Shown: piece after piece, positions 10,301 to 28,178 of the stretch
How the letters are laid out: every line of letters begins with the position of its first letter
How positions within the stretch are numbered: the first letter of the stretch is position 1
DNA from: Bacteroidales bacterium
GTDB lineage: Bacteria > Bacteroidota > Bacteroidia > Bacteroidales > VadinHA17
Reading direction: 5' to 3'
NCBI GenBank assembly: GCA_038245405.1
Contig: JBBRSO010000005.1
Coordinates: forward strand, 1 to 51,144
DNA: 51,144 nucleotides
The notes under the pieces: generated by a model
The model's input: the letters and a program-made list of their open reading frames with translations, nothing else
What the model was told of the DNA's origin: nothing
The model's database searches: none
Made by a program: the position numbers and the translations under genes

Positions 10301-12267
10301 CATTGATATTGAAGATTGGGACCTGTGGCAATGACTGTGAATGAGGCATCTTCATTTAATGTAACACTTGAGTTGACAGGTTGAGTAACAATAGAAGGCT
10401 GTGCTTTAATAAATACATCCTTTAGTGTAGGATAAGCTGACGGGCATGAAAATCCGTTTGTATAGGAAACTGAAACTGATTGATTACCGGTTGCATTCCA
10501 TGTAACGCTTATTGTTTTTGATGTTGAACCCGAATTAATGGTGCCACCTGAAGATATTGTCCAAGTGTAACCGGTCATTCCGCTTTCTGTGGTATACGTA
10601 ACGCCTGATGTTCCGACACATACAGATGCACCGCCTGTGATTGTTGGAGATGGTCTTTGATTAACTGTTACAGAATAATTAAGAGGAGATACAGCAGTAC
10701 ACCCATAGGAATTTGTATAATTTAATAAGATTGATTGAGAACCAGCAGCAGTCCAGTTTACATTTACAGAACTTGTTCCTCCTCCTATTGTAACATACCC
10801 ACCTGTTGGAATTGACCACGTATAGCCTGTCATTTCTGTTTGAGTTGTATAAATTACTCCAGATGTCGCTTCACAAACAGTTTGTAAACCAGTATTAATT
10901 TGTGGGCTAGGTCTGGGATTTACTGTAACATTTTTAACATAAGAAGAAGTAGCTGTACACCCATTTGGGTTTGTATAGTTAACGGTAACTGTCCGAGCGC
11001 CGGCAGTATTCCATCTAACAGTAACTGTATTATTTGTTGAGCCGCCACCTGATGTTAAAGTACCACCACTTGAAACTGACCATGTATAACCTGTCATGCC
11101 TGTCTGTGTTGTATAGGTTACCCCTGATGTCGCTTCACAAACAGTTGATAACCCATCAATTGTTGGTGTAGGAAGTGAGTTAACAGTTACATTCTTGCCA
11201 GTAGGATTTGCAGCCGGACAGGAATACCCATTTGTATAGCTTACGTTGACTGTTTGAGCTCCTGCATTATTCCAGGTAACACTGATGGTATTTGAAGTTG
11301 AACCTGAATTAATGGTCCCCCCGGCAGAAATCGTCCAAGTGTAACCTGTCATTCCACCCTCAGTGGTATATGTGACGCCAGAGGTACCTTCACAAATTGA
11401 AGCAAATCCAGTAATTGAGGGAGAAGGTCGTGGATTGACCGTTACAGGATATACTGTGGTATTCGGACATGAATAACTATTGGTATAGGTAACGTTTACA
11501 CTCCTAGAACCCGCGGCTGTCCAGTTTACATTTATGGTATTTGTATTGGAAGGACCATGGATATATCCCCCTGAAGGAATTGTCCATGAGTAACCCGACA
11601 TACCTGTGGGTACAGAGTAAGTTACACCTGTTGTCCCTTCACATACAGTTGAAGAACCGGAAACTCCAAGGGAAGGAACAGGATAGACTGTCACTTCCAC
11701 ATTTGCACACGAGGAAGAGGTACAGCCATTCACCCACCTTGCATAATATTTTGTTGTAGAGGTTGGCGCAGTGATTGTAAGCGGTGAACCTGTTCCAACC
11801 TCACCCGACCCGCAGCTGGAAGAATACCATCTGAGGATATCCCCCGATCCTCCGCTGGCGGTTAGCGTAATCGTGGAATAAGCGCCAGGACAGTAACCAC
11901 TATGGTTTGACGATGCAGATGAAGGCGCTGTGGGAGAGCCACATGCCTGGTTGACCGTTAGCGGCCTGTTGCCAATCAACATGTTACCGCTTCGGGCGGA
12001 ACCCGAATTTGAGGGAACAGTAACTGTAACCATGTACCCGTTTTTAGTGTAAGTTGCAAACCCGGTATAGTTCGATACATTATAATTCGTGCACCCTCCC
12101 TGTGTGGTTACCGCTACGGTGTATTGTCCCCCGGACCCTGATGCATTGATCGTGGAGGGACTTATCACTGTTACGGTACATTGTCCAAAAATATTACTGT
12201 TAAGCCCAGACAGAATTAGTAAAGATATTATTATCACAAGGATCTTTTTCACCGGGATTGTTTTCAT
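4306..12267 (-). CDS. Secreted RHS/YD-repeat polymorphic toxin, TcB/TcC (BC)-like. Order: signal peptide, Ig/PKD-like repeats, SpvB-like domain, 7 FG-GAP/VCBS repeats, RHS shell, HExxH C-terminal toxin
   Basis: 2653-aa ORF. Signal peptide: MKTIPVKKILVIIISLLILSGLNSNIFGQ. Five ~85-aa tandem repeats (GVTYTT..GMTGYTW.I..GG....G.....I.V.W...G...V.V.YTN). SpvB-type motif: GGLSYSIPLFCSPGTNGVKPNLSLQYNSQSGNGLLGLGWNL. Seven DxNGDGKxD repeats. Many YD repeats (YDxxGN, YxYD). RHS core end: NRYSYCLNNPLKYADPDGE (DPDGE at 5053-5067). A 248-aa tail follows, containing HEFIH (4555-4569). Confidence 0.9.
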   Translation of the reverse strand: MKTIPVKKILVIIISLLILSGLNSNIFGQCTVTVISPSTINASGSGGQYTVAVTTQGGCTNYNVSNYTGFATYTKNGYMVTVTVPSNSGSARSGNMLIGNRPLTVNQACGSPTAPSSASSNHSGYCPGAYSTITLTASGGSGDILRWYSSSCGSGEVGTGSPLTITAPTSTTKYYARWVNGCTSSSCANVEVTVYPVPSLGVSGSSTVCEGTTGVTYSVPTGMSGYSWTIPSGGYIHGPSNTNTINVNWTAAGSRSVNVTYTNSYSCPNTTVYPVTVNPRPSPSITGFASICEGTSGVTYTTEGGMTGYTWTISAGGTINSGSTSNTISVTWNNAGAQTVNVSYTNGYSCPAANPTGKNVTVNSLPTPTIDGLSTVCEATSGVTYTTQTGMTGYTWSVSSGGTLTSGGGSTNNTVTVRWNTAGARTVTVNYTNPNGCTATSSYVKNVTVNPRPSPQINTGLQTVCEATSGVIYTTQTEMTGYTWSIPTGGYVTIGGGTSSVNVNWTAAGSQSILLNYTNSYGCTAVSPLNYSVTVNQRPSPTITGGASVCVGTSGVTYTTESGMTGYTWTISSGGTINSGSTSKTISVTWNATGNQSVSVSYTNGFSCPSAYPTLKDVFIKAQPSIVTQPVNSSVTLNEDASFTVIATGPNLQYQWQVSADGVNSWTDLSGLPAENFQTPTLIIKGSEAFQNDYYRCQINSDCDMTYSDVVKLTTDFPEVGYLEQIPDPSVYRSINTELEVGTTAGSVTTTQLGGLSYSIPLFCSPGTNGVKPNLSLQYNSQSGNGLLGLGWNLAGLSSISRVANPYYNNQVVKAIEMVSADQYAIDGNLLILETNGGSQGADGSKYKTEQETFTESIMHGTSGNGPSWFEVKNLKDNSTLEYGNADNSYVSEINSTTKLTWLLTKQMDTNGNYIKYTYLRDPSSGMPLLNTIEYTGNDNANLNPYNQIVIEYKKRSDPYKYFSAGVEINNDILIAKIMVKCQMSTVRTYAFNYGHGFFDPYSYLFEIEESASTGLKFNKTIFGYGFFSPSSYPDSYLTTIGDNDFNFADINGDGKSDLVVIPVKTTYSSSDKIKVYLNQDGTNFEPFKEIPINPYSINLGHGKTYSWGKFDGGSIIDFDGDGKSDLYTVESVDNTNNPNYQNGDITDQFQNIFSFYHFNGIDLVSDPPIAVSAIWAMIPGDYDGNGKSECFFYTPDKNQIWNGIGLPSSFGSTNFSNKMGPIDFNGDGKTDIYFLDSNSHIHIYGYDFIANQLTELITPIFFDYDKYCFGDVNGDGKTDILGYNTGGTKLLFSTGKNFIDVSFSPNSGQLTKFYIADLNGDGKGDIIHESTWPFMLGTNTTIYAYYYYGNSFTEREIGWSSDGAGGNDLSVTDLDGDGQIDLYLREKSAGEITVSKIIRYMPDDKSRLLTEISNGLNIRSTITYGVLPKSISFSNSTSNFGFPTPKFKLPIYLVENIQSFGPGNTIPFTNTNYYYEDLMIHLQGRGILGFLKLKEEDLINLTKSEDLFRFGTTYYNMYQFDSKQYINNILVSETTSLAPVDISLDNSKRHFSYIPLSTAENKINNTITEVATIIANDGNLTSKTSKAKTSSGTVVSQIYESYPEYNSLGEPLSSSIAYTRGAESITRSKSYEYFENGLLKKEIKLFGASPSVETSLTYDEFGNILTSSVTCGSITRSNTFEYEPVLNRFIYKKYNSINHFLKYGYDPITGNLLEEFDYSNLRTSYQYDAFGVNTGVQYPDGQTIINSKGWSYNALGIGELYFTKSESPHKPTKISYFDFLGKEVRSKILSFDGTYLVNDKVYDSKSRVDKSYMPYFEGNSRDQYIKFSYDDDHIGQLTTETVYPSGTATSYTYNGLETTITKNEQIYKKENDASGLLCKSTDPGGEISYHYNAEGKAKTILSPSGATTIDYDDYGFQKELHDIDAKTIQYDYNGLGELVNQTDAMLNKSTIVYDALGRIDHKTWLGGETTTNIYDPVSELLTSISVSNKTQSFTFDAFNRISTKTETIDNNSFTSNYFYDDYGNINKEVINNEVTVETGFNNYGYPYQVKANNQAVWDATSMNKYGQIDNYTYGNGINTVILNDVNGFIDKKASKLGSTWIQNWDYDFDPIYGNIMKRKGINSSINFLEENFTYDHLNRLLTYGVSGYPLANTYDESGKGNILSKSGIGSYQYHQSSLVHRLDSINSLSGYESGLTDQSIEYTKFNKISSLTNSTSLDTKLLTFTYGPDEQRVKTEYSLNGNIVKTKFFALGNYEKEIGADNSIRELYYISTPTGLTAILEQKNDQWNKYYIHSDFLGSFDVITDPSGAVLERLSFDPWGRRRNPDDWTFTNVSTTHLFDRGFTGHEHLNQFDLINMNGRVYDPLIAMFLSPDNYVQSPDITKNFNRYSYCLNNPLKYADPDGEFIITAIVMLANMYINTSMVNNFEFNPLKWDWKNANTYVTLVQSGISGWHMGQQLENKIKFNKYRRSYNHALRMDEVEFEQTGSTQLSADYDLYGFQKTYFPNYTYKDKLDMFYNNEIVEANSTGSVTAWGFTSNQLIDGKYQIYFGEGSHKSLGHLYLTMGHEFIHVAHFEKFGLDFNKNMSEYAAYMWQAGYQHSQNSDWKPFKTAALKWSNYDLSKNRSFLKIEPYLITKQNNYGLPFFNYYDLFN
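4309..5052 (-). other. C-terminal variable toxin domain of the RHS protein (putative zinc metallopeptidase, HExxH)
   Basis: This is the sequence after the conserved PxxxxDPxGE core boundary. It contains LTMGHEFIHVAHFEKFG, an HExxH motif. Confidence 0.5.
10401..11679 (-). repeat. Five tandem ~255-bp coding repeats (PKD/Ig-like domains) inside the RHS gene
   Basis: Protein repeats lie at about aa 197-622. Units 2 and 5 are the most similar (TISAGGTINSGSTSNTISVTWNNAGAQTVNVSYTNGYSCP vs TISSGGTINSGSTSKTISVTWNATGNQSVSVSYTNGFSCP). The similarity is also visible at DNA level. Confidence 0.8.
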
Positions 12268-12484: not shown

Positions 12485-12991
12485 GAGTCATATATTTTAT
12501 TGTCGATCATGACACGGAGTATATAGATTCCATCTTTATACCTGTTTTATGTCTATCTCAGTATGATTCCCAATATTTTTTTTGACCATAATTTCGAAGC
12601 CGGATAAATCATATACTCTCAGTTCATTTAGAGAGTTTAACGGAATATTTGATATGTCAATTTTTATCAGCCCTTTATTGGGGTTTGGATAAACAACAAT
12701 GGTTGTTTTATCCTCTTCCGACACCAATTTTTCTTCCTTTGCCTTATCTGAATCCAAGACTTTGTCGGTTATTACTTGATCTGATACCAGGGCTTTATCA
12801 GTTTTTGATGAGCCCATAGAATATTCAAATGATCTTGGGTTAGGATTGCCTGGAGGGCTTATAATCTCAACTACCAATATTCTGCTTTTCCTGTTTCCAT
12901 TATCATCGTAGGTAAAAGCTACAGTTTGACCAGAAAGTCTCATTATAAATAATAATAAAAGATTTACGATGATGATTCGTTTATGATTCAT
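12478..12991 (-). pseudogene. Small exported YD-repeat protein with a T9SS C-terminal sorting domain, frameshifted inside the CTD
   Basis: The ORF 12536-12991 carries a signal (MNHKRIIIVNLLLLFIMRLSGQ), one YD repeat (FTYDDNGNRKSR) and the start of a Por_Secre_tail-type CTD (VVYPNPNKGLIKIDISN...LRVYDLSGFEIM...EIDIKQV*). The expected CTD ending, KDGIYILRVMIDNKIY, is encoded in another frame at 12537-12478. Confidence 0.55.
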
Positions 12992-13397: not shown

Positions 13398-13565
13398 TTA
13401 CATGAACTTCTCCCGTTTCTGTAGATTAAACAACGCTACCAGCAGAAAAACCAGCGATCCGGCAACAAGGATAATCCTGTTTTTAAATGTGATGATAGCC
13501 CAGGTTGTTTCATTTACATCGCGCGGCAATTCGTAGGGATTAAGAAAGACATTCCACTGACTTTT
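13398..13565 (-). repeat. Right copy of the 168-bp direct repeat (attR-like); forms the functional 3' end of the ABC-2 permease gene
   Basis: 165 of 168 nt identical to 1623-1790. Homology starts exactly at the stop codon and ends at codon ~183 of the permease. Confidence 0.85.
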
Positions 13566-14114
13566 ACCAAGAGCATCGCTGAGTGTCAGGAAAAAGAGAC
13601 CGAAGATGATCATTAATACTGCTGTTCCATTTCCATTTCTGACAACTGTAGAAAGCATGAATGCCATAATACCAAGAAAAATTACAGGAAACATTACCTG
13701 CATTGTCACATTCACAAACCGGAACTTTACGATGAGCACTGAAGAAAGAAATGTAAATACGAGCATTATCAGGAAAGCCACGATAAAGATCAGTAATACT
13801 CTCACAAGCCATACTTTATACCTGTAATTCGGAATACCGAACAGGATCTCAATTGTTCGGGCATCCTGGTCATTCTGTATACCAAAAACGGTGGGATAAA
13901 AAATCAGCAGGACTCCTGAAAACAGGAAAACGCCATACAGATCACGCATATTTGAAACATCCTGGTCGAACACATAGATAACCGATAAGCCGAGATAAAA
14001 CACTACTGAGCCAGCCAGGAACCAGATAAATCTGTTTGCAAAAATTATCCTCAGGTTATATACAACCATTTTTTGTACCAGATTAAGAAAATTGTATAAG
14101 TTTCGCGATCTCAT
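13398..14114 (-). CDS. ABC-2 type transporter permease
   Basis: 238 aa with ~6 hydrophobic helices. It has an ABC-2-like conserved acidic loop (QDARTIEILFGIP). Its ATG overlaps the stop of the upstream RND::ABC gene (ATGA at 14111-14114). Confidence 0.7.
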   Translation of the reverse strand: MRSRNLYNFLNLVQKMVVYNLRIIFANRFIWFLAGSVVFYLGLSVIYVFDQDVSNMRDLYGVFLFSGVLLIFYPTVFGIQNDQDARTIEILFGIPNYRYKVWLVRVLLIFIVAFLIMLVFTFLSSVLIVKFRFVNVTMQVMFPVIFLGIMAFMLSTVVRNGNGTAVLMIIFGLFFLTLSDALGKSQWNVFLNPYELPRDVNETTWAIITFKNRIILVAGSLVFLLVALFNLQKREKFM

Positions 14115-17100
14115 ATGCTTGCGTTTACATTGTTTTGTGGACTAAGGATCTCTTTTCTTCTTAGCAGCCAGAGATAAGCATCTTCAAGGTTTGGTGTTGC
14201 ATTAATAGCTCCTTCCCATGGTGATATTTCAGAAATAACCCTCACTCTGATATTTTCACCTTCCGACATGTGATGCACTACAAGATGGCTCTCCACAAAT
14301 GTTCCAAAATCTTTTGCAGGAATGTTGAATTGCCATACATGGCCTTCTGCTTCCTTTGTCATAGCAATTGGTTCCCCGAAATACCTTAGCTTGCCTTTAT
14401 TCAGTACTGCAACTTTTTTACAGGAGCTCGAGATATCCTCAATAATATGGGTTGAAAATATTACTATCCTGTCGCGGCCGAGCTCAACAAGCAGATTCCT
14501 GAATCTGATGCGTTCCCGTGGATCGAGACCAGCGGTGGGTTCATCAACAACAAGAATACGTGGCAGATGAAGAAGAATCTGTGCAATTCCCATTCTTTGC
14601 TTCATACCACCGGAATAGGATCCGATTTTTTCATGACGCCGCTCTTCCATATGAACAGATTTGAGAACATATGTCACGCGTTCTTCCCTGGTTTTGACAT
14701 CGGTTATATTTTTGAGCATAGCCTGGTAATGAAGGTAATCATGAGCAGTCATGTTCTCATAACTTCCAAATTCCTGCGGTAGATATCCAATCAACCCCTG
14801 CAGCTCTTCCCGCATCTTCTGTGTATCGAGACCATTTATCCACACCTTTCCATAGCTCTGTTCAAGAATACCGCAGATAATTCTCATAAGTGTAGTTTTT
14901 CCCGCGCCATTCGGGCCCAGCAGACCGAACATACCGTTTCCGATATTCAGTGAAACGCAACTCAATGCCTTGAATGGCTTCTTCTTCTTACCAATAAGTG
15001 GAACAACTGCTACCACCTTATAGATATTCTTCCTCAAACCTTTGAATCTTCCTTCAAGCCTGTAAATGTCGATGTTTTCTTTTGTAAGCTTCTGTCCGGT
15101 TTTAAAGATAAACAACCCGGTGAACCATAGAAAACCAAGTATTATAACAATAACGATATTGTCCCATTTGTGATAAAACCATAATAGATTCAGAAACGGG
15201 ATTATCCAGAAGATGACTGAATCAAAGATTTTTGAGAATCTGGCCAGCCACCTCTTTTTACCACCGGAAGTAAGATTGTCTATCAGCTCACTGAATGAAG
15301 TCCAGATAGATGACAGAAAAAACCATGTTACAATTGCGAAAACAAAAATCCAGAATCCTTTCTGCAAATAAAAATATGTGAAGTAGAAAATATATCCAGC
15401 CAATGGAATCTGCCAGCCTATCTGAGTCATATCCTTTAAAGACCTGAATTGTTTTTGCAATCCCAGTCTTTTCCTTATACGTGCTCCTGCCTTCCATTCG
15501 CGTGACCATCTGTTTTCCCGTTCATAGATCTTCACCAGACTTTGTATCCTGATGTTGATACTTTCGTCAGGGGAGATTACGGTTTCCCTCGCTTTTTTCA
15601 GGCTGTTCATCACAAACCATGTTCCCGCGGGGACTAATATTATTGAGATGATGGAGGTAATAAGCTTCCAGAGGAACTTATCGACATTCAGGTAGATTAG
15701 CGCTATAAGGAAAGTAAATAGGATAATCTGGATTGTTTTGTTTTTCCAGGGAAGCGAATTGAACCATTTAAGTGCATTTTCGAGACCCGTATAGAATGTG
15801 GGAATAAAAACCAGTGTAAGAAGGGTACTCAGAGTAAGTCCGCCAATCACGGTAATGGCAAATGAAGCACCGATAACTGAAACAAATTCAGCCTTGCCCA
15901 TCGCCAGCGGGATCATAGCAATCACAGTTGTAGCTGCCGTAATCAGGATAGGACGCAATCTGGAAACACCGGCTGTCATGAGAGCTCTTTGTACCCTGTA
16001 GCCACGCTTTCTTAAAATATTTGTATAGTCTATGAGAATAATTCCATTATTCACAACCACTCCCAGCAAGATTAAAAAGCCTGTGAGTGTATTGAGGTTT
16101 AAGAGTGAGTTCCCGGTCAGTATAAGAGCAACGAGTGAGCCAAGAGCTGCAAGAGGGATGCTGAACATAAGAACCACAGGGGTTGCAAGCGATTCAAACA
16201 CTGAAGCAAGGATCATGTAGATCAATAGGAATGCGACACCGATTATGAAATACAGATCTTTCCACTTATCTTCTTCATGAACAACTTCGACGGCAATACC
16301 GGCAGGTATATTCAACCCTGATACAATTGATTCAATATCGGCCCTTGCACCTGCCAGCAAGTCTTTTGAGTTTTTTATCTCCTCATTAAAATCGTATGTA
16401 ACGGTAATTCGTTTTTCCTGGTTTTCCCTGTGAATGCTGCCCATTCCTGAAGCAAATACAATTTTTGATAATTCATCCATTTCGATTACTGCACCATTGC
16501 TCCCATTAACCAGCAGGTGTTTCAGGTCGTCTATTGTTTTGTCTTTTTTCTCTTTCGATTCGCCAGGCTCATCAGCATACTTAATCATAATATCATAATT
16601 ATCTGTGCCCTGTCTGAACTGTATTCCTGAAGAATACTCGCGACCGAATGTTGAAAGTGCCGAGGAAAGATTTAATAATGTAAAATTGTTTCTTCCCAGG
16701 TAATCCATGTCAAAGAGGAGATGAACCTCAGGTTTATTTTCCTGGATATTTATTCTGGAAGTGTTCATTGAAGAAAGACTTCCTACTGAAGCTTTAATAT
16801 CATTAGCCAGATTTTTCATCTGTACAAAATTCTGGCCTTTTATGATTACACTTTCTTTGGTGGAACCTAACCCGAGCAAATTCATAAATTCATCTCCCTC
16901 GCCATCTCCGCCTCCCATGTTATCACCGCCTGAAAATCCACCGCTGGAAGATTGCTCGTCCATGCTTATTTCAGCCGATGTGATATTCTTTACCTTCTTA
17001 AGGATATCACTCTTAATTTCAGGAAGTGTCCTTTTGCTATTCTTATCCCATTCTTTCTTAAGATTAATTGTGATAGTGGCTTTTTCCTCTTCAATACGAC

Positions 17101-18880
17101 TCACTACGTCTTCCTTCTCAGGCAGAGAAACAAGTCGTGATTCAACTTCTGCAACAACAGCATCAGTTTTTTGCAAGGGTGATCCTCCGGGCATTGTTAC
17201 TGTGAGTCTGAAAACAGGTGTCTGAACCTCCTGGGATGTGCTGATGCTCAGGGCCAGACTTATAAGAAGAGTGGCAAAGAAAACTATGAGAGTGCCAATG
17301 ATTGTTGAGGCAGGCTTTCTCATGCTTGCTTTTAAAATGAGGTGGTAGCCCTGGATCACCCTGTTATGGATAGAGAGTTTTTTGAAGATTTCAGAATTTG
17401 TTCCTGAGCTCCGGGTGAGCAGGAAATAGGTTGCCATTGGGATGAAAAGCAGCGATACAGAGAGTGATACAGCGAGAGTCGAGATGATAGAAATACCAAT
17501 ATTTTTGCCAATTATTTTTATCATATAATTATTGGCAAAGATAAATGGCATGAAAACGATCAGAGTAGTGAGCGTTGAGGCGAAGACCGACCGCCAGACT
17601 TCAATTGTACCTTGCTTTACAGCTGTTTCGGGATCTTTGCCCTGACCGGCGAGGCGATATATATTTTCCAGAACAACAACAGAATTATCTACCAGCATAC
17701 CTATAGCCAGGGCCATTCCGACCAGTGTAAGACTGTTTATTGAAATATCGTAAGCGTAGAAAAAGTTGAAAGCAGCATAAACCGACACTGGAATAGAGAC
17801 TGCGATAATGGCTACCAGGCGAATATTCCTCAGGAAAAACCACAAAATCAGAATAGCCAGAACACCGCCTGTGATGGCAAGATCGATTATCTGATTTATA
17901 TTTTTTTCCATTATCTCAGAGTTATTGTTCTGGACAACAATCTCAACTCCTGATGGCGCGAGTGTTTTATTCAATTCAGCTATCTCTTTTATAGTAGTGT
18001 GTGAGAGATTTATAAGATTTGCCTGGTTATCATTGGCAAGGGAGATTGTGACAGCATCGAGCCCGTTTACCCTGCTATAAGAGCTCTGTTCCTTTACTCC
18101 GAATACGATCTCAGCAACATCCTTAAGTAAAACCGGACCAGTGGTTTTAACAATCAGATTACCAATTTCTTTTACATCGGTATATTCTGACGAGACGTTT
18201 ACAAAGAGCTGATTGCTTCCATCATAAACCTTGCCGGCAAAAGCCCGCTTTGCTCCATTATTATTAAGAAGATTCCGAACTTCACCAATAGAAATACCGT
18301 TAGCTTTGCATGCTCTCTCATTCAATCGGATCTCGATTGAGTTTTCCATTCCTCCATAAACCTGTAATCCGGCAATACCGTCAATATTTTCAAGATGAGG
18401 CTTTATCTCACGGTCTGCAATGTTTCTTATCCTGTCTATCCCGCCTTCACCGCGAACCTGGAGTGTCATAAACTGATTTGTCAGTTCCTTCAGATCTATT
18501 TTTATCACATTGATAAAGAATTCAGAAGGAATCGAGTTCTTAACGATATCAATTTTCTCCTGAAGTTTCAGATTTGCATATTTCAGGTTAGCATTCTGAT
18601 TATAGTATATGAATATATTACCGCTATTTGAATTGATATTCGTCTCGATTTTTTCAACTCCCTCGAGTGTGCCTATTGCGCCTTCAATAGGTACAATAGC
18701 CTGTGTCTCAATATACGATGGATCTTTCTCAATAGGTGTTGCCACCTGTATAATTAAAAATGGAAGCTGCGCATTCGGAAGGAGTTCAACAGGAAGCTTT
18801 TTATAGGATACATAGCCGAGCAAGGTGAGCCCGAGGAAGAGCATACTTATAAAAATTCTTCGTTTTAAAATAAAATTCAT
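14111..18880 (-). CDS. RND (AcrB/HAE-type) efflux permease fused to six extra TM helices and a C-terminal ABC transporter ATP-binding domain
   Basis: Uninterrupted 1589-aa ORF. The RND body runs from aa 1 to ~1032 (...LVFIPTFYTGLE at 15782-15814). Walker A GLLGPNGAGKTT lies at 14894-14932, the signature SGGMKQRMGIAQ at 14579-14620 and Walker B ILVVDEPTAGLD at 14522-14560. The C-terminal domain is paralogous to that of the 297-aa ATPase. Confidence 0.85.
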   Translation of the reverse strand: MNFILKRRIFISMLFLGLTLLGYVSYKKLPVELLPNAQLPFLIIQVATPIEKDPSYIETQAIVPIEGAIGTLEGVEKIETNINSNSGNIFIYYNQNANLKYANLKLQEKIDIVKNSIPSEFFINVIKIDLKELTNQFMTLQVRGEGGIDRIRNIADREIKPHLENIDGIAGLQVYGGMENSIEIRLNERACKANGISIGEVRNLLNNNGAKRAFAGKVYDGSNQLFVNVSSEYTDVKEIGNLIVKTTGPVLLKDVAEIVFGVKEQSSYSRVNGLDAVTISLANDNQANLINLSHTTIKEIAELNKTLAPSGVEIVVQNNNSEIMEKNINQIIDLAITGGVLAILILWFFLRNIRLVAIIAVSIPVSVYAAFNFFYAYDISINSLTLVGMALAIGMLVDNSVVVLENIYRLAGQGKDPETAVKQGTIEVWRSVFASTLTTLIVFMPFIFANNYMIKIIGKNIGISIISTLAVSLSVSLLFIPMATYFLLTRSSGTNSEIFKKLSIHNRVIQGYHLILKASMRKPASTIIGTLIVFFATLLISLALSISTSQEVQTPVFRLTVTMPGGSPLQKTDAVVAEVESRLVSLPEKEDVVSRIEEEKATITINLKKEWDKNSKRTLPEIKSDILKKVKNITSAEISMDEQSSSGGFSGGDNMGGGDGEGDEFMNLLGLGSTKESVIIKGQNFVQMKNLANDIKASVGSLSSMNTSRINIQENKPEVHLLFDMDYLGRNNFTLLNLSSALSTFGREYSSGIQFRQGTDNYDIMIKYADEPGESKEKKDKTIDDLKHLLVNGSNGAVIEMDELSKIVFASGMGSIHRENQEKRITVTYDFNEEIKNSKDLLAGARADIESIVSGLNIPAGIAVEVVHEEDKWKDLYFIIGVAFLLIYMILASVFESLATPVVLMFSIPLAALGSLVALILTGNSLLNLNTLTGFLILLGVVVNNGIILIDYTNILRKRGYRVQRALMTAGVSRLRPILITAATTVIAMIPLAMGKAEFVSVIGASFAITVIGGLTLSTLLTLVFIPTFYTGLENALKWFNSLPWKNKTIQIILFTFLIALIYLNVDKFLWKLITSIISIILVPAGTWFVMNSLKKARETVISPDESINIRIQSLVKIYERENRWSREWKAGARIRKRLGLQKQFRSLKDMTQIGWQIPLAGYIFYFTYFYLQKGFWIFVFAIVTWFFLSSIWTSFSELIDNLTSGGKKRWLARFSKIFDSVIFWIIPFLNLLWFYHKWDNIVIVIILGFLWFTGLFIFKTGQKLTKENIDIYRLEGRFKGLRKNIYKVVAVVPLIGKKKKPFKALSCVSLNIGNGMFGLLGPNGAGKTTLMRIICGILEQSYGKVWINGLDTQKMREELQGLIGYLPQEFGSYENMTAHDYLHYQAMLKNITDVKTREERVTYVLKSVHMEERRHEKIGSYSGGMKQRMGIAQILLHLPRILVVDEPTAGLDPRERIRFRNLLVELGRDRIVIFSTHIIEDISSSCKKVAVLNKGKLRYFGEPIAMTKEAEGHVWQFNIPAKDFGTFVESHLVVHHMSEGENIRVRVISEISPWEGAINATPNLEDAYLWLLRRKEILSPQNNVNASI

Positions 18881-18900: not shown

Positions 18901-21900
18901 TTATGAACTCTTCACAGACTCATTATTTACACCTCTTACCCAACTGCTGAAGGTATCGAACACCCAATATACACATGGAATAACAATAAGTGTAAGCAGG
19001 GTAGATGAGACTAGTCCTCCGATAACTGCAAGGGCCATAGGGGCTCTTAGCGATGCACTGTCACCAATTCCGATGGTAAGCGGCAAAAGTGCGAGTATGG
19101 TAGTCAGGCTGGTCATGAGTATCGGTCTTATCCTTTGTGTTCCGGCAGTTACTATTGCCTCTTTTTTCGAAATACCCTTTTCCCTGAGCTGGTTTATCCT
19201 GTCAATAAGCAGAATTGCATTATTTACAGCAATACCTCCAAGCATAATTATACCAATGTAAGCCATCATATTCAGGGATTTTCCAAATATGAAAAAAGTA
19301 ATCACAGTACCTACACCGGCGAGCGGAATAGTAAGCATTATTACAAATGGTTGAATAATTGATTCAAATTCGGCAGCTAAAACCATAAAAACGAGCACTA
19401 GTGATAAAATTAGTGCGAAAGTCAGATTCTTGTTTGACTCCTTACGTTTCCGTTCTTCTCCGCTTATAACCATTTTATAATCAATTGGCAGTATAACCTC
19501 TTTGAGTGACGCTTCTGCGCTTTTTACAACGTGATCGAATGCTGTATTCGCACTTACCATTGCATTTATATAGCAGATCCTGTCCTGGTTTTTCCTTGTG
19601 ATTTCCCGCGGACTTACTATTGTTTTAATTTTGGCAAGCTCACTTAGAGGTACTTTTATACTGCCTGCAGTAATCAGGAGATCGCGAAGCTGATTAAGAG
19701 AGATCTTGCCAAGCTTTATGGTAATATCTTTCATCTCACCATCCTTTTCAAAACTGCCTGCAGAAGATCCGTCAAGAAAACTTTTCACCTGGTTTATAAC
19801 AGTTTCAGCCGTGACATTATAGTAGCTGGTCTTAAACTTATCGATAGCTACTTCTACCTCCGGTGTACCCTGATCGATCGACGTCGTGATATTATATAAC
19901 CCGGGATTCTTCATCAGTATAACTTTGGCTTCGTTCACAATTCTCTCAAGCTCGTCATAATCTTCTCCCGATACTTCGAGTGTGAATGGGGCTTCAGATG
20001 TCCCGAGCGAAGTCTGCAGTGCAGTTTCTTCCCTCGTAAAACTTGTTTCCAGATCGGGGATAGTTTTCAGATAATTGCCTATGAGAGTAATTGCATCTTC
20101 CGTTTTTTTCGCAAACCCCTTAGCGAGGATGATCTTTAATGATCCTGTATTATCGCCTTTGGTTACCCCGGTATTCAATAATGATGTATTGTCGGCTCCT
20201 GCCTGGGAGTATATCATTTCAATTTTTTCGCCGAGAATTTCTCTTACAATCCCCTCCGTTTTCGTAATAGTGCTTGAGGTTCTTTCCAGACTTGTACCTT
20301 CCGGTAATCTGATATTCAGTGTAAACTCTGCAGATTCTGATTTAGGCATGAATTCGCTTCCCAGCCTGGGTATTAACATCACAGTCAAACCGAGTAGTAA
20401 AACTGAAACAAGAATGACAAGTTTCCGCTTTTCAACTATTTTCTCTAGGAGTCTTTTATACCAGCTAAAATCCACAGGGATGGTGGTATCAACATTTTTC
20501 TTTTTGTCGGAGAAAAACGTTGAAACCAGCATAGGAATCACAAGCATTGCTATTACTAGAGATGAGAGCAGCGAAAAAGCAACTGTCCAGGCCTGATCCT
20601 TAAACATTTCTCCTGATGCTCCGTGAAGGTAAACAATAGGCAGAAAAACCACTATCGTAGTAAGAGTAGATGAAGTTATTGCAGATCCAACTTCCCCGGT
20701 TCCACGTATTACTGCTTCGCGCAAACCAACTCCTTCTTCACGCAAACGGGTAATATTTTCGAGAACAACAATTGCATTATCCACAAGCATTCCTGCACCG
20801 AGAGCCAGACCACCAAGTGTCATGATGTTCAATGTAAGATGATTGAAGTACATAAGGTTGAAGGTGGCAATGATTGAAATTGGTATCGCAACGCTGATAA
20901 CCAGAGTGGTGCCAATTCTCCTGAGGAAAACATATAGTACAAGCACTGCCAGAAGAATTCCTATTATGAGTGTGTTTTTTACTTCTCCTATTGCATTATG
21001 GATATATGCTCCCTGGTCCTGGACTCTTATAAACTCATAACCGGGTAAGGCTTTCCCGAGGGTGGTGATCTCTTTTGAAAGACTCTTTACTACATCAACA
21101 GTATTAAATTTTGGTTCTTTGTAAATTGATAAGCCAACACACCTCTCACCATTAATCCTGACAATGTTTTCCGGCTCTTTATTTGCAAATTTCACTGTAG
21201 CTACATCTCTAAGATAAACAGGCACTTTATCAGATGGTGCTTGTGTTGTTAAAGCTGAACTTCCGGAAGAAGATAACGTCGATGCTGCAGAAGACTGTTT
21301 AAAACCTACAACGATGTTTTCAAGATCATTAAGGTCCTTAAGAACACTAACCCCTTTTACCACATATTTAAGCCCCATATCAACTATGGTGCCGCCTGAT
21401 ACGTTTCTGTTGTAATTAGCAATCTGTAAAGCTATGGCATCGACATTGAGACCGAAAGATTCGAGTATGTACTTATTGGTTTCTATAACAACTTCACTCT
21501 CTTCTATTCCGGTAAGCCTTACATCGGCAACACCCTCAATACGGACCAGCTCATTTCTGATATAATTCTCAGCTATTTTTCTGAGTTCTTCCATATTTGA
21601 TATGCTGGAATTTTTCAGTCCTACAATCATAACAGGGGTAGCGTTCGGATCATATTGTGATATCGTGAAGCTCTCGAGATCGGAATTCTGACGAAATGTA
21701 TTCAGCTCTTTCTGAAGATCAAGGAATGCCTCATCCATATCCTTGTTCCAGTCATATTCTACCGTTATGGTGGCTGTTCCAACCTGCGACACAGATGATA
21801 CCTGAAGGACATCGCTTTGACGGGTAGCCAGAGACTCAATCTGTTCAACGTAATTTTTTTCTATCTCCTCCGGCGGTTTTTGTCCGGCTTTCAGTTCTAT

Positions 21901-22041
21901 ATATATCTTTGGGTTATTGAGGTCGGGAAATAAGTCAGTCCCGAGCTTACCGAAAGATATAAACCCCAGCAGAACAATCCCGAGAACAAGCATTAATACT
22001 GTGACCGGGTATTTTACAGCAAATTGAGCAATCCTGTTCAT
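18901..22041 (-). CDS. Efflux RND transporter permease subunit (AcrB/CzcA superfamily)
   Basis: 1046 aa with the typical ACR_tran N-terminus MNRIAQFAVKYPVTVLMLVLGIVLLGFISFGKLGTDLFPD and 12-TM organisation. Its start overlaps the adaptor stop (TAATG at 22039-22043). Confidence 0.9.
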   Translation of the reverse strand: MNRIAQFAVKYPVTVLMLVLGIVLLGFISFGKLGTDLFPDLNNPKIYIELKAGQKPPEEIEKNYVEQIESLATRQSDVLQVSSVSQVGTATITVEYDWNKDMDEAFLDLQKELNTFRQNSDLESFTISQYDPNATPVMIVGLKNSSISNMEELRKIAENYIRNELVRIEGVADVRLTGIEESEVVIETNKYILESFGLNVDAIALQIANYNRNVSGGTIVDMGLKYVVKGVSVLKDLNDLENIVVGFKQSSAASTLSSSGSSALTTQAPSDKVPVYLRDVATVKFANKEPENIVRINGERCVGLSIYKEPKFNTVDVVKSLSKEITTLGKALPGYEFIRVQDQGAYIHNAIGEVKNTLIIGILLAVLVLYVFLRRIGTTLVISVAIPISIIATFNLMYFNHLTLNIMTLGGLALGAGMLVDNAIVVLENITRLREEGVGLREAVIRGTGEVGSAITSSTLTTIVVFLPIVYLHGASGEMFKDQAWTVAFSLLSSLVIAMLVIPMLVSTFFSDKKKNVDTTIPVDFSWYKRLLEKIVEKRKLVILVSVLLLGLTVMLIPRLGSEFMPKSESAEFTLNIRLPEGTSLERTSSTITKTEGIVREILGEKIEMIYSQAGADNTSLLNTGVTKGDNTGSLKIILAKGFAKKTEDAITLIGNYLKTIPDLETSFTREETALQTSLGTSEAPFTLEVSGEDYDELERIVNEAKVILMKNPGLYNITTSIDQGTPEVEVAIDKFKTSYYNVTAETVINQVKSFLDGSSAGSFEKDGEMKDITIKLGKISLNQLRDLLITAGSIKVPLSELAKIKTIVSPREITRKNQDRICYINAMVSANTAFDHVVKSAEASLKEVILPIDYKMVISGEERKRKESNKNLTFALILSLVLVFMVLAAEFESIIQPFVIMLTIPLAGVGTVITFFIFGKSLNMMAYIGIIMLGGIAVNNAILLIDRINQLREKGISKKEAIVTAGTQRIRPILMTSLTTILALLPLTIGIGDSASLRAPMALAVIGGLVSSTLLTLIVIPCVYWVFDTFSSWVRGVNNESVKSS

Positions 22042-23093
22042 TACTTAATAATTTTAACCTTCGACTTATTGCTGAGAGTCTCAAAGCCGGTTGTAACAAT
22101 CCGCTCATTTTTAGTCAACCCTTTTGTAACCTCAACATCTGACAGATTTTCAAGTCCTGTTTCAATAATTCGTTCAACGGCCACACCCCTGTCAACAACA
22201 AAGACGGTCTTCCCCCGCTGGCGTGATAAGATTATATTCTTAGGGATTACAATAACCGAATCCTTGTGATTTATGACGATATCGGCTTTTACAAACATCC
22301 CGGGACGCATTCGGTAATCCGGATTATTTATTGAGATATTTCCTTTGAATGTTCTTGTCTCAGCATTTATTGCAGGCGATAACTGGGTAATGTTTCCGAT
22401 GATAGTATCCTCGGGAATGGTATAGTTTGTCAGCTTTACAATTTGTCCCGGCTTTATTTCAGAAATATATTTTTCAGGAAGCTGGACTTCCATATACATT
22501 GTCAGGTAGTTCATGATCTTAGCTATTGAAGAACCGGTCTCAACCTGGGTGCTCTGTGTATAGTAAGGCAGATCAACTATTACCCCGTCAATTGGAGCAA
22601 CAATTTTTGTTTTGTCAAGCTGAAGCTTTGAATTCTCAACAGTGGTTTTTGCATTTTCATAATTTATACCGGCTGTCTTGAGCTCTTTCAATGTTACCCC
22701 GCCTTTTTCATAGAGAGATTCTTCTTTTTTGAGTTCACTCTCTGTAAGCTCAAGATTCAGCTGATTGGTCTCCATCTTTATGGAGTTAACATATTCCCTG
22801 TCTTCAAGACGTGCGATAAGAGCTCCTGCTTTAATTTTATTACCCAGTTGCCATAACCTACCTGTTTCCGGATTTTTTTCAAGAAAATATGAAGCAGAGA
22901 TCCTTGATTTTAACGTAACCTCCCCTGCAGGGAAAGCAGTCCCGGTGGTGTTTATAAATTCTTCAATCGACTTCAACTTTATCGTTTCAACCGAAACCGG
23001 AATTTCAACATCAGCAGCTAGATTCTGTTCCTTGTTCCTGCAGCCTGTAATTGCAAAAAATGCAAATGCAATAATGAAAATACTTTTTCTCAT
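22041..23093 (-). CDS. Efflux RND transporter periplasmic adaptor (membrane fusion protein, HlyD/AcrA family) lipoprotein
   Basis: 350 aa with the lipoprotein signal MRKSIFIIAFAFFAITGC. It has a coiled-coil segment and a beta-barrel C-terminus (IVPKNIILSRQRGKTVFVV). It lies between the TolC and RND genes. Confidence 0.85.
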   Translation of the reverse strand: MRKSIFIIAFAFFAITGCRNKEQNLAADVEIPVSVETIKLKSIEEFINTTGTAFPAGEVTLKSRISASYFLEKNPETGRLWQLGNKIKAGALIARLEDREYVNSIKMETNQLNLELTESELKKEESLYEKGGVTLKELKTAGINYENAKTTVENSKLQLDKTKIVAPIDGVIVDLPYYTQSTQVETGSSIAKIMNYLTMYMEVQLPEKYISEIKPGQIVKLTNYTIPEDTIIGNITQLSPAINAETRTFKGNISINNPDYRMRPGMFVKADIVINHKDSVIVIPKNIILSRQRGKTVFVVDRGVAVERIIETGLENLSDVEVTKGLTKNERIVTTGFETLSNKSKVKIIK

Positions 23094-23103
23094 TTTATTA
23101 TAA

Positions 23104-24594
23104 TTATTGTTTGTCTAGGGTCAATACTGGTGTAACCATTTCTTTTTTCTCAAAATCATAAAGCGTCTGGATTTTGAGATTCAGAAGTTCAAGTTTATAT
23201 GATATCAATGAATTTGTATATGTTAACTGCTTCTCAGAAAGCTGATTCTGGAATAAGTTGAGATCCATGCCTGTCAGATCGCCATTTTTATATCTCTCGA
23301 GATTGAGATCATATGTGAGCTGTGCATTTACAACGTTCTGACGCGCAATCTCTATCTGGTTGCTTAGATTGAGAAGATTCCTGTAAACCTTTCGGATGTC
23401 GATAATTATATTGTTCTTCTCTTCATCAAGTGATATCTGTGATGTGGCTATTGTGGCTTCCGAAGCCTTTATCATCGACTTTCTTCTTCCCCAGTCCCAC
23501 AAGGGAATTTCGAGCGACAGACTAACTACTTCATTATCTGTCCGGCTTTCTTTGTCATAAACATTCTGGAATTTTTCATTGTCTCCGAATAGACCCAGGG
23601 ATAAACTAAGATTCCCTTTAAATTCATTCATTGCTTTGGTGCGAACGAGATCGAATTGTGAAGTCTCAATATCGATCTTTCTCTGACGCAGCTCCATTCT
23701 GTTTTTCAAACCCTGATCAATAGCAAATGAAATATTCACTGAAACAGTATCTACGGCTATATTGGGGATTACAACGAGATCCTCATAAAGGCTCATGCCT
23801 ATTAATAATTTAAAATCATCTTTGGCATTCTCAAATGAAACCTGTCTGTTCTCAAAATCTGATTTTGCCGTGGCAAGGTTTAGTTCAGCCTGAAACATCT
23901 CTTCTTTTGGCGAAATGCCTGCATCTACCTTGTTCTTGGATACCTCGTAGGATTTAAGCATATTCTGATATGCCTGGTTTGCTATTTCCATACTTTTTTG
24001 CTGCTGATAGACATAATAAAATGCCTGTGTGACTCCCTTTTCCAGGGACAGAAGCTGTATGGCATAATTTAACTGGGTGTTCTCAAGAGCCAGCTGAAGT
24101 TCCTTAAGATTAAGCTTTGTTTTGTTGTAGGTGAATAAAGGCTGATCGAGATTGATAGCAAGATTATTGCTGAATCCTTTTTGCTGCTGTGTAGCGAACT
24201 GGCTGTAGCTATCGAGATAACCAAAGGTATTGGTAAGTGAAAGGGTTGCATCGGTAACCAATATAGGCTGTCGCACCGAAAAAGTTCCATATGTCTGAGT
24301 TTTCCGCTGGCTGTTATAGTCGGAGATAAGGTCGTTGAATACTCTGTCGCGGCTATAACTGAAAGGAGTGAGCAAAAGGGCGAACTGCGATTTGAGAGAT
24401 GCATTCTGTGCATTAAGGTTTTCCTGGCTCCTGATCAGACTAAGTCTGGTCTTCTTCATTGAAGGGCTATTGAGCTCAGCAACACTCAGACTTTGCTCAA
24501 GTGTTAAACCCTGTTGCGAAAATGCTGTCACGCAAGTCAATAGCATAAAAATAATTGACAAATTTATTTTCATTATCGTACTGGTGTTTTTCAT
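23104..24594 (-). CDS. TolC-family outer membrane efflux protein
   Basis: Signal peptide MKNTSTIMKINLSIIFMLLTCVTAFSQQ, then LTLEQSLSVAELNSPSMKK and an internally duplicated OEP-type sequence. The track start at 24657 (MGGLPRRRKNL...) looks like an overcall. ATG at 24594, or alternatively 24573, is more plausible. Confidence 0.8.
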   Translation of the reverse strand: MKNTSTIMKINLSIIFMLLTCVTAFSQQGLTLEQSLSVAELNSPSMKKTRLSLIRSQENLNAQNASLKSQFALLLTPFSYSRDRVFNDLISDYNSQRKTQTYGTFSVRQPILVTDATLSLTNTFGYLDSYSQFATQQQKGFSNNLAINLDQPLFTYNKTKLNLKELQLALENTQLNYAIQLLSLEKGVTQAFYYVYQQQKSMEIANQAYQNMLKSYEVSKNKVDAGISPKEEMFQAELNLATAKSDFENRQVSFENAKDDFKLLIGMSLYEDLVVIPNIAVDTVSVNISFAIDQGLKNRMELRQRKIDIETSQFDLVRTKAMNEFKGNLSLSLGLFGDNEKFQNVYDKESRTDNEVVSLSLEIPLWDWGRRKSMIKASEATIATSQISLDEEKNNIIIDIRKVYRNLLNLSNQIEIARQNVVNAQLTYDLNLERYKNGDLTGMDLNLFQNQLSEKQLTYTNSLISYKLELLNLKIQTLYDFEKKEMVTPVLTLDKQ

Positions 24595-24775
24595 ATTTAT
24601 AGTGATAAAGATTTTTGTTTTCTTTAAGTTCTTTCTCCTCCTCGGCAACCCCCCCAACCTCCATTTGGGGAGCTTTCAGCCTTTGAATTTCTCTGTGTAA
24701 CTCTGCGTCTCAATAGCTATCGGGGCTCAGTGTAAGTTCTTTTTTCTTATCAACCTCAGCCTCAGTTTCAGCCTC

Positions 24776-27700: not shown

Positions 27701-28165
27701 GACTGATAGAATGAGAAGATACCAGAGGTACGACATATAGTCAATTGTCATAGTCGTAGAGATAATGTTAACGATCATACCCATTGCAAGAACGACTATA
27801 TTAAGCCCCAGGAATAAACGCAGTATGCCCCAGGTCTTACCGATGATATACTCCAGATTCGACATCGACCTGGTGTATAATACTTCGTTGGTATCTAGTT
27901 TTTTATCTCTTTTAAGAAAGTCAGCCGCAAGGAAAATCACCACAAATGCCTGACCAATATTCAGAAGATAAAGATTCATCAGTGGTACTGAGGAAGGAAA
28001 TGAAACCAACTCCCAGGGCTCATCTCCTATGGGTGAGAAAAAACCTATGTTTATTATAGTAAAGATAAACAGCGCTCCCAGTGCGAAGAGCCTGAAGAAC
28101 CAGCTTCTTCTAAGTGTCTTCGCCTCATACCTGGCAACAGTTTTTATATTATTAAGAAATGCCAT
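24776..28165 (-). CDS. ABC-2 type permease (N-terminal ~280 aa, multi-TM) fused to a ~850-aa extracytoplasmic domain
   Basis: 1129 aa. The N-terminus MAFLNNIKTVARYEAKTLRRSWFFRLF... has 6-7 hydrophobic helices and an ABC-2-like loop (KLDTNEVLYTRSMSN). The rest is hydrophilic. The gene sits 13 nt downstream of the ABC ATPase gene. Confidence 0.7.
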   Translation of the reverse strand: MAFLNNIKTVARYEAKTLRRSWFFRLFALGALFIFTIINIGFFSPIGDEPWELVSFPSSVPLMNLYLLNIGQAFVVIFLAADFLKRDKKLDTNEVLYTRSMSNLEYIIGKTWGILRLFLGLNIVVLAMGMIVNIISTTMTIDYMSYLWYLLILSVPTIIYSLGLAFFLMSVIRNQAITFLVLLGYAALNIFYLWFRMGNIFDYMAFGMPIFKSGIIGFDNLSAIVSQRLMYFFAGMALVLATVLLFKRLPQSRIQRVFTVIFMVAFAAGTAIFGFRTYYEYSISRDFKKEVIETNRKFENQNFATITDADITFIHKGETMEATANLKIINENRSALDRYLFSLNPSLAVQKVSSGGVDLKYTRTNQIIEIESGKLLNPGSSDSVVISYSGTINESFCYPYYSDNVRLAPYRIIMMNVNKRQSFLEKNYVLLTPETHWYPVTSLNYYPANPAKIKLDFTRYTLHVKTEPGLSPISQGRMTTENGYNLFRSENPLSGLTLVMGNYMSDTLTVDSIDYISYHFPGNDYYKKDLSELKDTLPTLVSGLMRELETNFSTKYPYKTLSLVEVPVQFYSYPKKNTQTRAEVQPSMVLLPEKLSTIDNAGFHKRFKNQKRRMARNNEVITDKELEVRIFNGCIRNAFISGENFRWQNGIMLNEPTRYRLGPSFYFFKNNFYSSEYPVINAVFESHLQHLTTGDENNDFRTGMGVLSDNDKANLILRNISFKELLSKNPSEDTLRNVLTVKGDWLFNLLRSKAGLNEFKPWFSEYIDNNQFKNINIQKFYSDVKAKFGFDFISSLDSWYNSKDQPGFLFTSLRATEIVVDDRSRYQVTFIASNPEAVAGLFNVSFKTGGQKVSDEKISLSQKGRGMDAEDISRIIFLAPREAKRIGIVLDAEPRTMMINTLVAKNIPGDIEFPFTEILKSKGESKEFSGEETLLSMPLFSDPSEIIVDNEDPGFISSKQNTTSPLKKFLRVKNRNGNTYMKISNWNTPEYWQPVVLTSYYGKYIRSAIYTRSGSGDKSVTWMTPITGKGYYDIYCYIGKTIDRMQVKGGDQDDGEDNSDRDNQIKDLHFKVYHDEGVDDISIDYMQADGGWNNLGRYYLSKDSARVVLTNKSSGRIVIGDAIKWVKQN

Positions 28166-28178
28166 AGGTTAGTGCTTA

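Follow-up and report, generated by a model that had tools for sequence, protein, structure and literature searches.

A conserved Bacteroidota protein joins an RND permease to an ABC ATPase and may form part of a composite exporter

Textbooks treat efflux as a problem with two separate solutions. Resistance-nodulation-division (RND) pumps are proton-driven trimers that capture substrate from the periplasm or outer leaflet, whereas ATP-binding cassette (ABC) transporters are ATP-driven dimers able to take up substrate already in the cytoplasm or inner leaflet. A gene of a Bacteroidales bacterium (VadinHA17) raises the question of whether both engines can reside in one protein and, if so, what such a protein might do. 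The gene lies on contig JBBRSO010000005.1 of assembly GCA_038245405.1, whose 51,144 nt we analyzed as a whole and call the window, and an earlier note on this DNA had proposed that it encodes a genuine covalent fusion of an RND permease to an ABC ATPase rather than two genes merged by a missed stop. The gene belongs to an operon of constant order encoding an outer-membrane factor (OMF), a membrane fusion protein (MFP) acting as periplasmic adaptor, a stand-alone RND permease (RND1), the fusion itself, and a 238-aa protein (P238). We consider it nearly certain that a complete RND permease and an ABC ATPase are truly joined in one polypeptide and that this polypeptide is functional.

Pfam matches to ACR_tran at about residues 1–1030 and to ABC_tran at about residues 1300–1450, the absence of which had been named as a reason to abandon the fusion, are both strong. 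ACR_tran (PF00873) covers aa 2–1031 (534.8 bits against a cut-off of 28, E 4.9e-160, model positions 3–1018 of 1021), and ABC_tran (PF00005) covers aa 1311–1450 (95.9 bits against a cut-off of 25, E 4.2e-27). NCBIfam likewise places RND permease models over aa 2–1037 and matches the C-terminal part to ABC-2-class ATPases. The near full-length ACR_tran match and the hydropathy profile, in which 11 of 12 helices pass the threshold and large loops span aa 28–330 and 545–875, bear out the proposal that residues 1 to about 1032 form a full RND permease, and the positions given for Walker A, the signature and Walker B were also right (GPNGAGKT, aa 1322–1329, corresponds to nt 14894–14917). The order of parts in the fusion is the RND domain, a two-helix hairpin, the predicted first strand of the nucleotide-binding domain (NBD), a four-helix insert, the NBD core, and a C-terminal domain (Table 1).

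A missed stop, a frameshift or a chimeric assembly could have joined two neighboring genes, and some relatives do show shorter pieces (loci L001, L002, L023, L041, L071, L076 and L082, and hits under 1000 aa). These pieces, however, are contig-end truncations or come from indel-ridden long-read contigs, where RND1 is also in three pieces. A scan of one genome per species (GTDB) for relatives of the linker plus NBD yielded 123 loci, 80 of which were fetched; in 67 fetched loci from other species-level genomes, a stop-free frame of 1570–1622 aa runs through RND, linker and NBD. The assemblies behind these 67 full frames come from many studies, several assemblers, and both short-read and long-read data. 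The same full frame is found in distant lineages and in a Maribellus locus, and the junction region itself is under purifying selection. On these comparative data we reject an artefact, which we regard as exceedingly unlikely, and the earlier claim of a genuine fusion stands. All proteins listed by a word-indexed homology search were 1000 aa or shorter, yet the collection it searched does contain members of about 1570 aa; lengths in its top list are no evidence for split genes.

With the 268-aa linker alone as query, phmmer searched 1.84 billion representative proteins exhaustively and returned matches in only 102 clusters. Complete linker proteins account for 15 cluster representatives (1550–1587 aa), with the linker at about aa 1025–1290 behind an RND-length segment, and all 28 full-length proteins of that size from distant clusters, these 15 included, keep the fusion layout. 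Both domains were found by Pfam in six of six distant members scanned. At a linker identity of only 27–40%, distant members retain the same order of helices and strands with almost no indels. No complete protein in this search carried the linker without an RND segment in front, and the only candidate for an unfused ancestor, P0140 (526 aa), was rejected as a fragment whose cluster includes a 1567-aa member.

Carriers number well over a hundred species and are mostly Bacteroidota. The closest locus to the window, L003, comes from an uncultured Bacteroidales metagenome-assembled genome (MAG) and is 85–96% identical in amino acids across the operon, while the distant members include Cyclobacteriaceae MAG proteins and a candidate-division KSB1 protein (RKY89563.1, named 'hypothetical protein') with the fusion layout. 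Orthologues of P238 occur in cultured Maribellus comscasis, M. maritimus, Tangfeifania diversioriginum and Draconibacterium. The locus with the M. comscasis protein encodes OEP, MFP, RND1 (1036 aa), a fusion (1574 aa, with ACR_tran and ABC_tran) and the 238-aa gene; by sequence, cultured Prolixibacteraceae such as the M. comscasis lineage carry the fusion. Two loci bear labels from outside Bacteroidota, namely L049 (Chloroflexota MAG) and P0073 (Spirochaetales MAG), which are 77% and 63% identical to the linker plus NBD segment of the window; binning contamination is the most likely source of these labels, rather than transfer. Three contigs of one MAG (CAZGGZ01; L022, L024 and L036) each hold a copy of the fusion, two of them sharing an identical 760-aa fragment, which suggests that the bin holds mixed strains or several paralogues.

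How the two halves are connected was examined in an AlphaFold2 (AF2) model of aa 1026–1589, built from a 72-sequence alignment with a mean predicted local distance difference test score (pLDDT) of 79.6. Six extra transmembrane (TM) helices in a 2+4 arrangement had been proposed for this region. Five of the six pass the Kyte-Doolittle threshold, and the sixth, the aromatic-rich segment aa 1157–1171, is a helix in the AF2 model, so that the count holds. The hairpin, TM13-TM14, has hydropathy peaks at aa 1052–1070 and 1073–1091 and is present in all distant members. It is separated from the remaining helices by a basic amphipathic helix with an RFxREWK motif, of which E89 and W90 (positions of alignment A4) are at least 90% conserved. 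TM15-TM18 are modeled at aa 1157–1171, 1175–1204, 1210–1239 and 1242–1267, followed by a short helix and then the NBD proper. The positive-inside rule is obeyed, as had been stated: the cytoplasmic loops hold 3, 16, 4 and 12 Lys and Arg residues and the three short periplasmic loops one each. Neither the four-helix insert nor P238 has a periplasmic loop longer than a few residues.

The possibility that the extra helices are a cryptic ABC-2 permease or a diverged copy of P238 was rejected, as hhalign gave a probability of 0.25%. Comparison of the linker profile with PDB sequences revealed no convincing solved relative of the four-helix block. Weak matches were seen between A4 positions 111–238 (fusion aa ~1150–1277) and helices of NorA, a drug pump of the major facilitator superfamily (E 0.0045–0.07), and between the linker profile and ribosomal protein S15; both are probably compositional, although nothing else than the NorA matches rose above noise for the four-helix insert.

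The earlier note had placed a complete NBD after the six helices. The NBD is indeed present, but what appears to be its first strand precedes the four-helix block. Residues 1110–1121 form a strand in the AF2 model, and joining them to the NBD core in a chimeric sequence moved the start of the GldA alignment from position 16 to position 2 and raised its score from 176.1 to 183.4 bits; the LptB, ECF, GlcV and other models then reached positions 1–3, with gains of 5–12 bits. The corresponding I-x-I-x-N-L-x-K-I-Y motif, followed by RFxREW, is the best-conserved part of the linker across 15 divergent lineages, and its I71, K78 and Y80 are invariant in alignment A4. An alternative first strand, IDIYRLEGRF (aa 1270–1279), was suggested by an ABCA1 sequence alignment reaching back to about aa 1264 and was rejected, since it forms no strand in the AF2 model and added 0.2 bits to the GldA match without extending it. 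Together, model and sequence comparison make the NBD look like a split domain, with the four-helix block inserted between strands 1 and 2, and aa 1110–1121 would presumably pack on the NBD sheet. Instead of one contiguous soluble domain, strand 1 and strand 2 (at about aa 1301) are parted by the amphipathic helix and four membrane helices. As the four helices are inserted inside the NBD, their number must be even. The even 2+4 count, previously credited with keeping the NBD cytoplasmic, is therefore retained, but the block is an insertion within the NBD and no simple spacer. To our knowledge, no other NBD is interrupted by membrane helices at this point. A second strongly conserved motif, NI(D/N)I..(L/I).G(R/K)F, lies at fusion aa 1268–1282 (window 15035–15079), after the four-helix block and ahead of the NBD core; it covers the rejected candidate IDIYRLEGRF and, by the tests above, is not strand 1 of the NBD.

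The catalytic set of the NBD comprises Walker A K1328, Q1369, signature S1423, Walker B D1446 and E1447, D-loop D1453, and H1478, with the signature reading YSGGMKQR from aa 1422 and Walker B reading ILVVDEP at about aa 1442–1448. From Walker A to the H-loop, every catalytic residue is the same in all 68 sequences compared. Averaged by segment, agreement with the residues of the window peaks in the NBD (0.92), against 0.75 in the RND domain and 0.62–0.67 in the helical linker segments. That the NBD is the most conserved part and all its catalytic motifs are invariant argues for real ATP hydrolysis by the fused ATPase.

GldA (TIGR03522) is the best-matching NBD family at 173.5 bits, short of its cut-off of 402.6, and the protein is not GldA; DrrA also remains below its cut-off with 156.7 bits, and the RbbA model NF033858 scores 133 bits. 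The best solved relatives in both sequence and fold are the NBDs of ABCA4, ABCA3 and ABCA1, together with Thermotoga TM_1403, NosF and LptB, and Foldseek alignments that span the NBD and the C-terminal domain extend over 286 columns with TM_1403 and 293–300 columns with NosF. Judged by sequence and model, the fused NBD belongs to the class that serves type V (ABC-2) permeases (DrrA/NosF/ABCA).

A candidate for such a permease is encoded directly after the fusion in 82 of 82 loci. P238 is 238 aa long in nearly all of them and has no Pfam match at threshold. Among its orthologues, sub-threshold matches were obtained to ABC2_membrane_2 (13 of 36, best E 0.0012), ABC2_membrane_3 (7 of 36) and ABC2_membrane_4 (5 of 36). 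An AF2 model of P238 (pLDDT 69, predicted TM-score 0.66) was compared with the PDB, and type V ABC transmembrane domains (TMDs; TM-score 0.47–0.60, E about 0.02), among them those of ABCG2, NosY, PmtCD, ABCG25, ABCG5/G8 and Wzm, take each of the first 37 places in the list of fold matches. Automatic labels on the orthologues point the same way, with a few called NosY-type permease by JGI and the Tangfeifania protein called 'ABC-2 type transp...' in UniRef. These profile matches and model comparisons give moderate support to P238 being an ABC-2-type (NosY/ABCG-like) permease.

The closest solved relative of the fused RND domain is MdtB (9lyq_B, E 7e-62). Its best NCBIfam match, RND_permease_2, reaches 458 bits against a cut-off of 1250, and the MdtB (244 bits, cut-off 1584) and MdtC (267 bits, cut-off 1774) models also fall short of equivalog level. 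By these comparisons it is an RND-superfamily protein outside every curated named subfamily tested. RND1, encoded directly upstream in 81 of 82 loci, is only 26.8% identical to it, which makes the two old paralogues. In the second periplasmic loop of the fusion, a Gly/Ser/Asp-rich low-complexity insert, SSSGGFSGGDNMGGGDGEGD (aa 643–672; window about 16865–16954, minus strand), is found in all close orthologues with variable length.

With respect to proton transfer, we take D398, N399, N944, R974 and T981 of the fusion to be the equivalents of AcrB D407, D408, K940, R971 and T978. These residues are fixed in 67–68 of 68 fusion sequences, and RND1 shows the same D/N...N pattern. The equivalents of D408 (fusion aa 399, window 17684–17686) and K940 (aa 944, window 16049–16051) co-vary: N is mostly paired with N, and D is paired with S in eight proteins, seven RND1 and one fusion (RND1 orthologues of L017, L050, L072 and L073; fusion of L080). 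Because they co-vary, the sequences suggest that the TM4-TM10 contact is still under selection, in a non-canonical relay. No unrelated RND genes for comparison of the D/N...N pattern were present in the fetched flanks.

What might this protein do? Since the NBD is of the class that pairs with ABC-2 permeases and P238 accompanies it in 82 of 82 loci, we favor, with slightly more belief than doubt, a composite tripartite exporter, consisting of a heteromeric RND pump with an ATP-driven ABC-2 module attached to it. In its favor, MFP-dependent ABC exporters with six-TM permeases are already known, YbhGFSR among them, and the RND domain has kept D398, R974 and T981. The two-helix hairpin would return the chain to the cytoplasm after the RND domain. 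RND1 and the fusion would assemble, like MdtB and MdtC, into a heteromeric trimer, a proposal based on the presence of RND1 in 81 of 82 loci, on MdtB being the closest solved relative, and on MdtBC being heterotrimeric. The MdtBC heterotrimer has a ratio of 2:1, and a heterotrimer of two fusions and one RND1 would contain just the two NBDs that a dimer requires, an attractive way around the mismatch in symmetry between RND and ABC units. The fused NBDs would dimerize and, with P238, make up the ATP-driven module, held against the RND transmembrane domain; that NBD and P238 form an active ABC-2 module is quite likely. The module could then pull substrate out of the cytoplasm or inner leaflet, or flip it, and hand it over at an entry on the outer leaflet or in the periplasm to the RND unit, which, probably still proton-driven, would expel it through the adaptor and the outer-membrane channel using the proton-motive force. 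This two-step relay is plausible and falls somewhat short of probable; like the subunit stoichiometry and the physical pairing of NBD and P238, it is a part of the mechanism that we infer.

Several points weigh against the composite exporter. RND trimers and ABC dimers are mismatched in symmetry, and the stoichiometry, the contact between NBD and P238, and any coupling of RND to ABC are things that we infer. The D408 and K940 equivalents are replaced by N/N in the fused RND, so that proton coupling is not guaranteed. The assignment of P238 draws on hidden Markov model matches below threshold and on a structure model of moderate confidence (pLDDT 69, with Foldseek E values of about 0.02); among PDB sequences, the P238 profile found no solved relative. 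Finally, across the 82 loci no conserved neighbor accompanies the five operon genes, and the surroundings offer no hint of a substrate.

The asparagines at the D408 and K940 positions, found in both RND1 and the fused RND and fixed in 67 of 68 sequences, would also fit an RND pump powered by ATP, in which proton coupling of the RND domain is reduced or lost and the NBD dimer drives or obligatorily gates the RND cycle through the extra helices by MacB-style mechanotransmission, with P238 as a stator and not as a substrate pathway of its own. The NBD is, moreover, the most strongly conserved part of the protein, and it is apparently pinned to the membrane on both sides of strand 1, an unusually rigid tether. 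Yet D398, R974 and T981 are invariant and the D408/K940 equivalents co-vary, as in a TM4-TM10 site still in use; a dedicated ABC-2 permease, if P238 is one, is always present, suggesting a normal ABC transport unit; and the D/N...N pattern may be simply typical of this RND subfamily. We consider such a pump very doubtful. Equally doubtful is an arrangement of two fusions and one RND1 in which the six extra helices and P238 would pass the power stroke of one NBD dimer on to the RND transmembrane domain, so that ATP, with or without protons, would drive the RND cycle or be obligatory for its gating. If true, an ATP-driven or ATP-gated RND cycle would be a new energy-coupling mode and the first RND pump energized by ATP.

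The link might, alternatively, serve co-assembly and little else, with RND and ABC-2 units running independent cycles or the NBD only gating or assembling the pump. MFP-dependent ABC exporters such as YbhGFSR and RND pumps work alone elsewhere, which makes a merged operon sharing MFP and OMF plausible, and nothing in the sequence demonstrates a hand-over of substrate. Set against this, linker length and order are conserved at only 27% linker identity and the linker search turned up no unfused version, which argues for a precise geometric relation and not a loose tether. We regard mere co-localization or regulation as unlikely.

The composite exporter that we favor resembles several known systems in part. 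MdtABC-TolC also has two tandem RND genes behind a single MFP gene in one operon, and MdtBC is described as a heterotrimeric RND in the 2021 Chem Rev review of tripartite pumps (PMC8277102). Here, however, RND1 and the fused RND are only 27% identical and are not MdtB and MdtC orthologues, one RND carries six extra helices and an ABC ATPase, and the operon adds an OMF and a probable ABC-2 permease. YbhGFSR, an MFP-dependent ABC exporter with six-TM permeases and an MFP in its operon (PMC7190983), has in common with RbbA-YhiI and MacAB-TolC an ABC ATPase working with a periplasmic adaptor. In all three, the sole inner-membrane engine is the ABC transporter, whereas here the ATPase is welded to an RND permease and its NBD appears interrupted by the four-helix insert; P238 also lacks the periplasmic domain of MacB, whose NBD is only distantly similar in fold. 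Compared with NosDFY, ABCA/ABCG and Wzm-Wzt, the NBD and C-terminal domain match NosF, TM_1403 and the ABCA NBD with its regulatory domain, and the P238 model matches the TMDs of NosY, ABCG2, ABCG25, PmtCD and Wzm. This likeness to type V transporters is at class level only, with identities of 26–29% between the NBD and NosF, TM_1403 or LptB, 15–19% to ABCA, and 10–20% for P238. We know of no type V member in which an RND protein is joined to the NBD or membrane helices divide it. SecDF with SecA/SecYEG, which serves purely as an analogy, is the one well-known case of an RND-superfamily protein, driven by the proton-motive force, that cooperates with an ATPase in one export process. It differs in that the association is non-covalent, the ATPase is not of the ABC type, protein is translocated, and neither adaptor nor outer-membrane channel takes part. 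SecDF is described in the same review (PMC8277102). In none of the systems compared here is an ABC ATPase joined covalently to an RND permease.

No description of an RND-ABC fusion was found in full-text literature searches, and the available part of the 2021 review (PMC8277102) does not mention one. The earlier statement that no such protein has been characterized holds insofar as the literature yielded no functional description, but the sequences themselves are already catalogued under automatic names, 'efflux RND transporter permease subunit' at NCBI and 'AcrB / ABC-type ... ATPase subunit' at JGI. The former name hides both the ATPase and the apparent split of its NBD. The parts thus come from known superfamilies, and the joined architecture is real, widespread and undescribed: a family that welds two efflux engines with a precise, conserved geometry and a dedicated, probable permease. 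If the parts cooperate, one complex would perform a two-step export thought to need separate pumps in other Gram-negative bacteria, and the mismatch between three-fold and two-fold symmetry would have to be solved, possibly by a 2:1 heterotrimer. Whether ATP can be coupled to an RND cycle, how substrate passes from the inner leaflet to the RND entry, and why certain RND pumps require two different permeases become testable questions. The fusion is widespread in environmental Bacteroidota and present in cultured Prolixibacteraceae, which makes experiments feasible.

Table 1. Positions in the window of the fusion gene, its segments and the other operon genes
Feature	Window position	Strand	Product or residues	Basis and remarks
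Fusion gene	14111..18880	(-)	1589 aa + stop	From ATG; single uninterrupted frame
RND permease domain	15785..18880	(-)	aa 1-1032	ACR_tran aa 2-1031
TM13-TM14 hairpin	15587..15748	(-)	aa 1045-1098	AF2 helices aa 1045-1065, 1069-1098
Displaced NBD strand 1 (predicted), NIRIQSLVKIYE	15518..15553	(-)	aa 1110-1121	AF2 strand, chimera test, conservation
Basic amphipathic helix, RWSREWKAGARIRKRL	15467..15511	(-)	aa 1124-1138	AF2 helix
Four-helix block TM15-TM18	15080..15412	(-)	aa 1157-1267	AF2 helices, hydropathy, loop charges
NBD core	14381..14989	(-)	aa 1298-1500	ABC_tran; first core strand from about aa 1301
C-terminal accessory domain	14114..14380	(-)	aa 1501-1589	AF2 beta-rich domain
P238, six-TM protein, probable ABC-2 (type V) permease	13398..14114	(-)	238 aa	Six hydropathy peaks
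RND1, stand-alone RND permease	18901..22041	(-)	1046 aa	ACR_tran E 2e-219
MFP, periplasmic adaptor	22041..23093	(-)	350 aa	TIGR01730 RND_mfp, 185 bits against 94.9; Pfam HlyD_D23
OMF (TolC-like) gene	23104..24657	(-)		Pfam OEP E 5e-39; listed open reading frame starts at TTG

The operon genes are closely spaced. The MFP stop overlaps the RND1 start at 22041, and the fusion starts 20 nt past the RND1 stop. The OMF gene stands upstream of the MFP gene in 61 loci, wherever the flank is long enough; its true start in the window is probably further downstream than the TTG of the listed frame, and the orthologue in L001 has 448 aa. An ATGA at 14111–14114, in which the fusion stop overlaps the ATG of the P238 gene, had been cited as translational coupling in support of the fusion. 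The overlap is present, but it depends on the long, 238-aa form of P238: in the contig's own gene call (P0249) the protein has 223 aa and starts at Met16, which would abolish it. Because orthologues conserve N8 and L12, both ahead of Met16, to 90% or more, the sequences favor the 238-aa form. In relatives the spacer between the fusion and P238 genes is usually 0–60 nt, and the ATGA coupling is a local feature of the window.

Downstream of the operon, the window encodes a 2653-aa protein (4306–12267, minus strand) with Ig/PKD, FG-GAP, SpvB and TcdB mid/N domains and RHS repeats, Tc-toxin or RHS-like in character, and a 151-aa protein (12536–12991, minus strand) with a C-terminal sorting domain of the type IX secretion system; the adjacency of these two to the pump is not kept in other loci. 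Just upstream of the operon lies a second ABC system (24776–29072, minus strand), consisting of a 297-aa ATPase (28179–29072) about 42% identical to the fused NBD and an 1129-aa protein (24776–28165) with about seven N-terminal hydrophobic helices, a large extracytoplasmic part and a Golvesin_C domain. An orthologue of the 1129-aa protein is also encoded upstream of the pump in L001.

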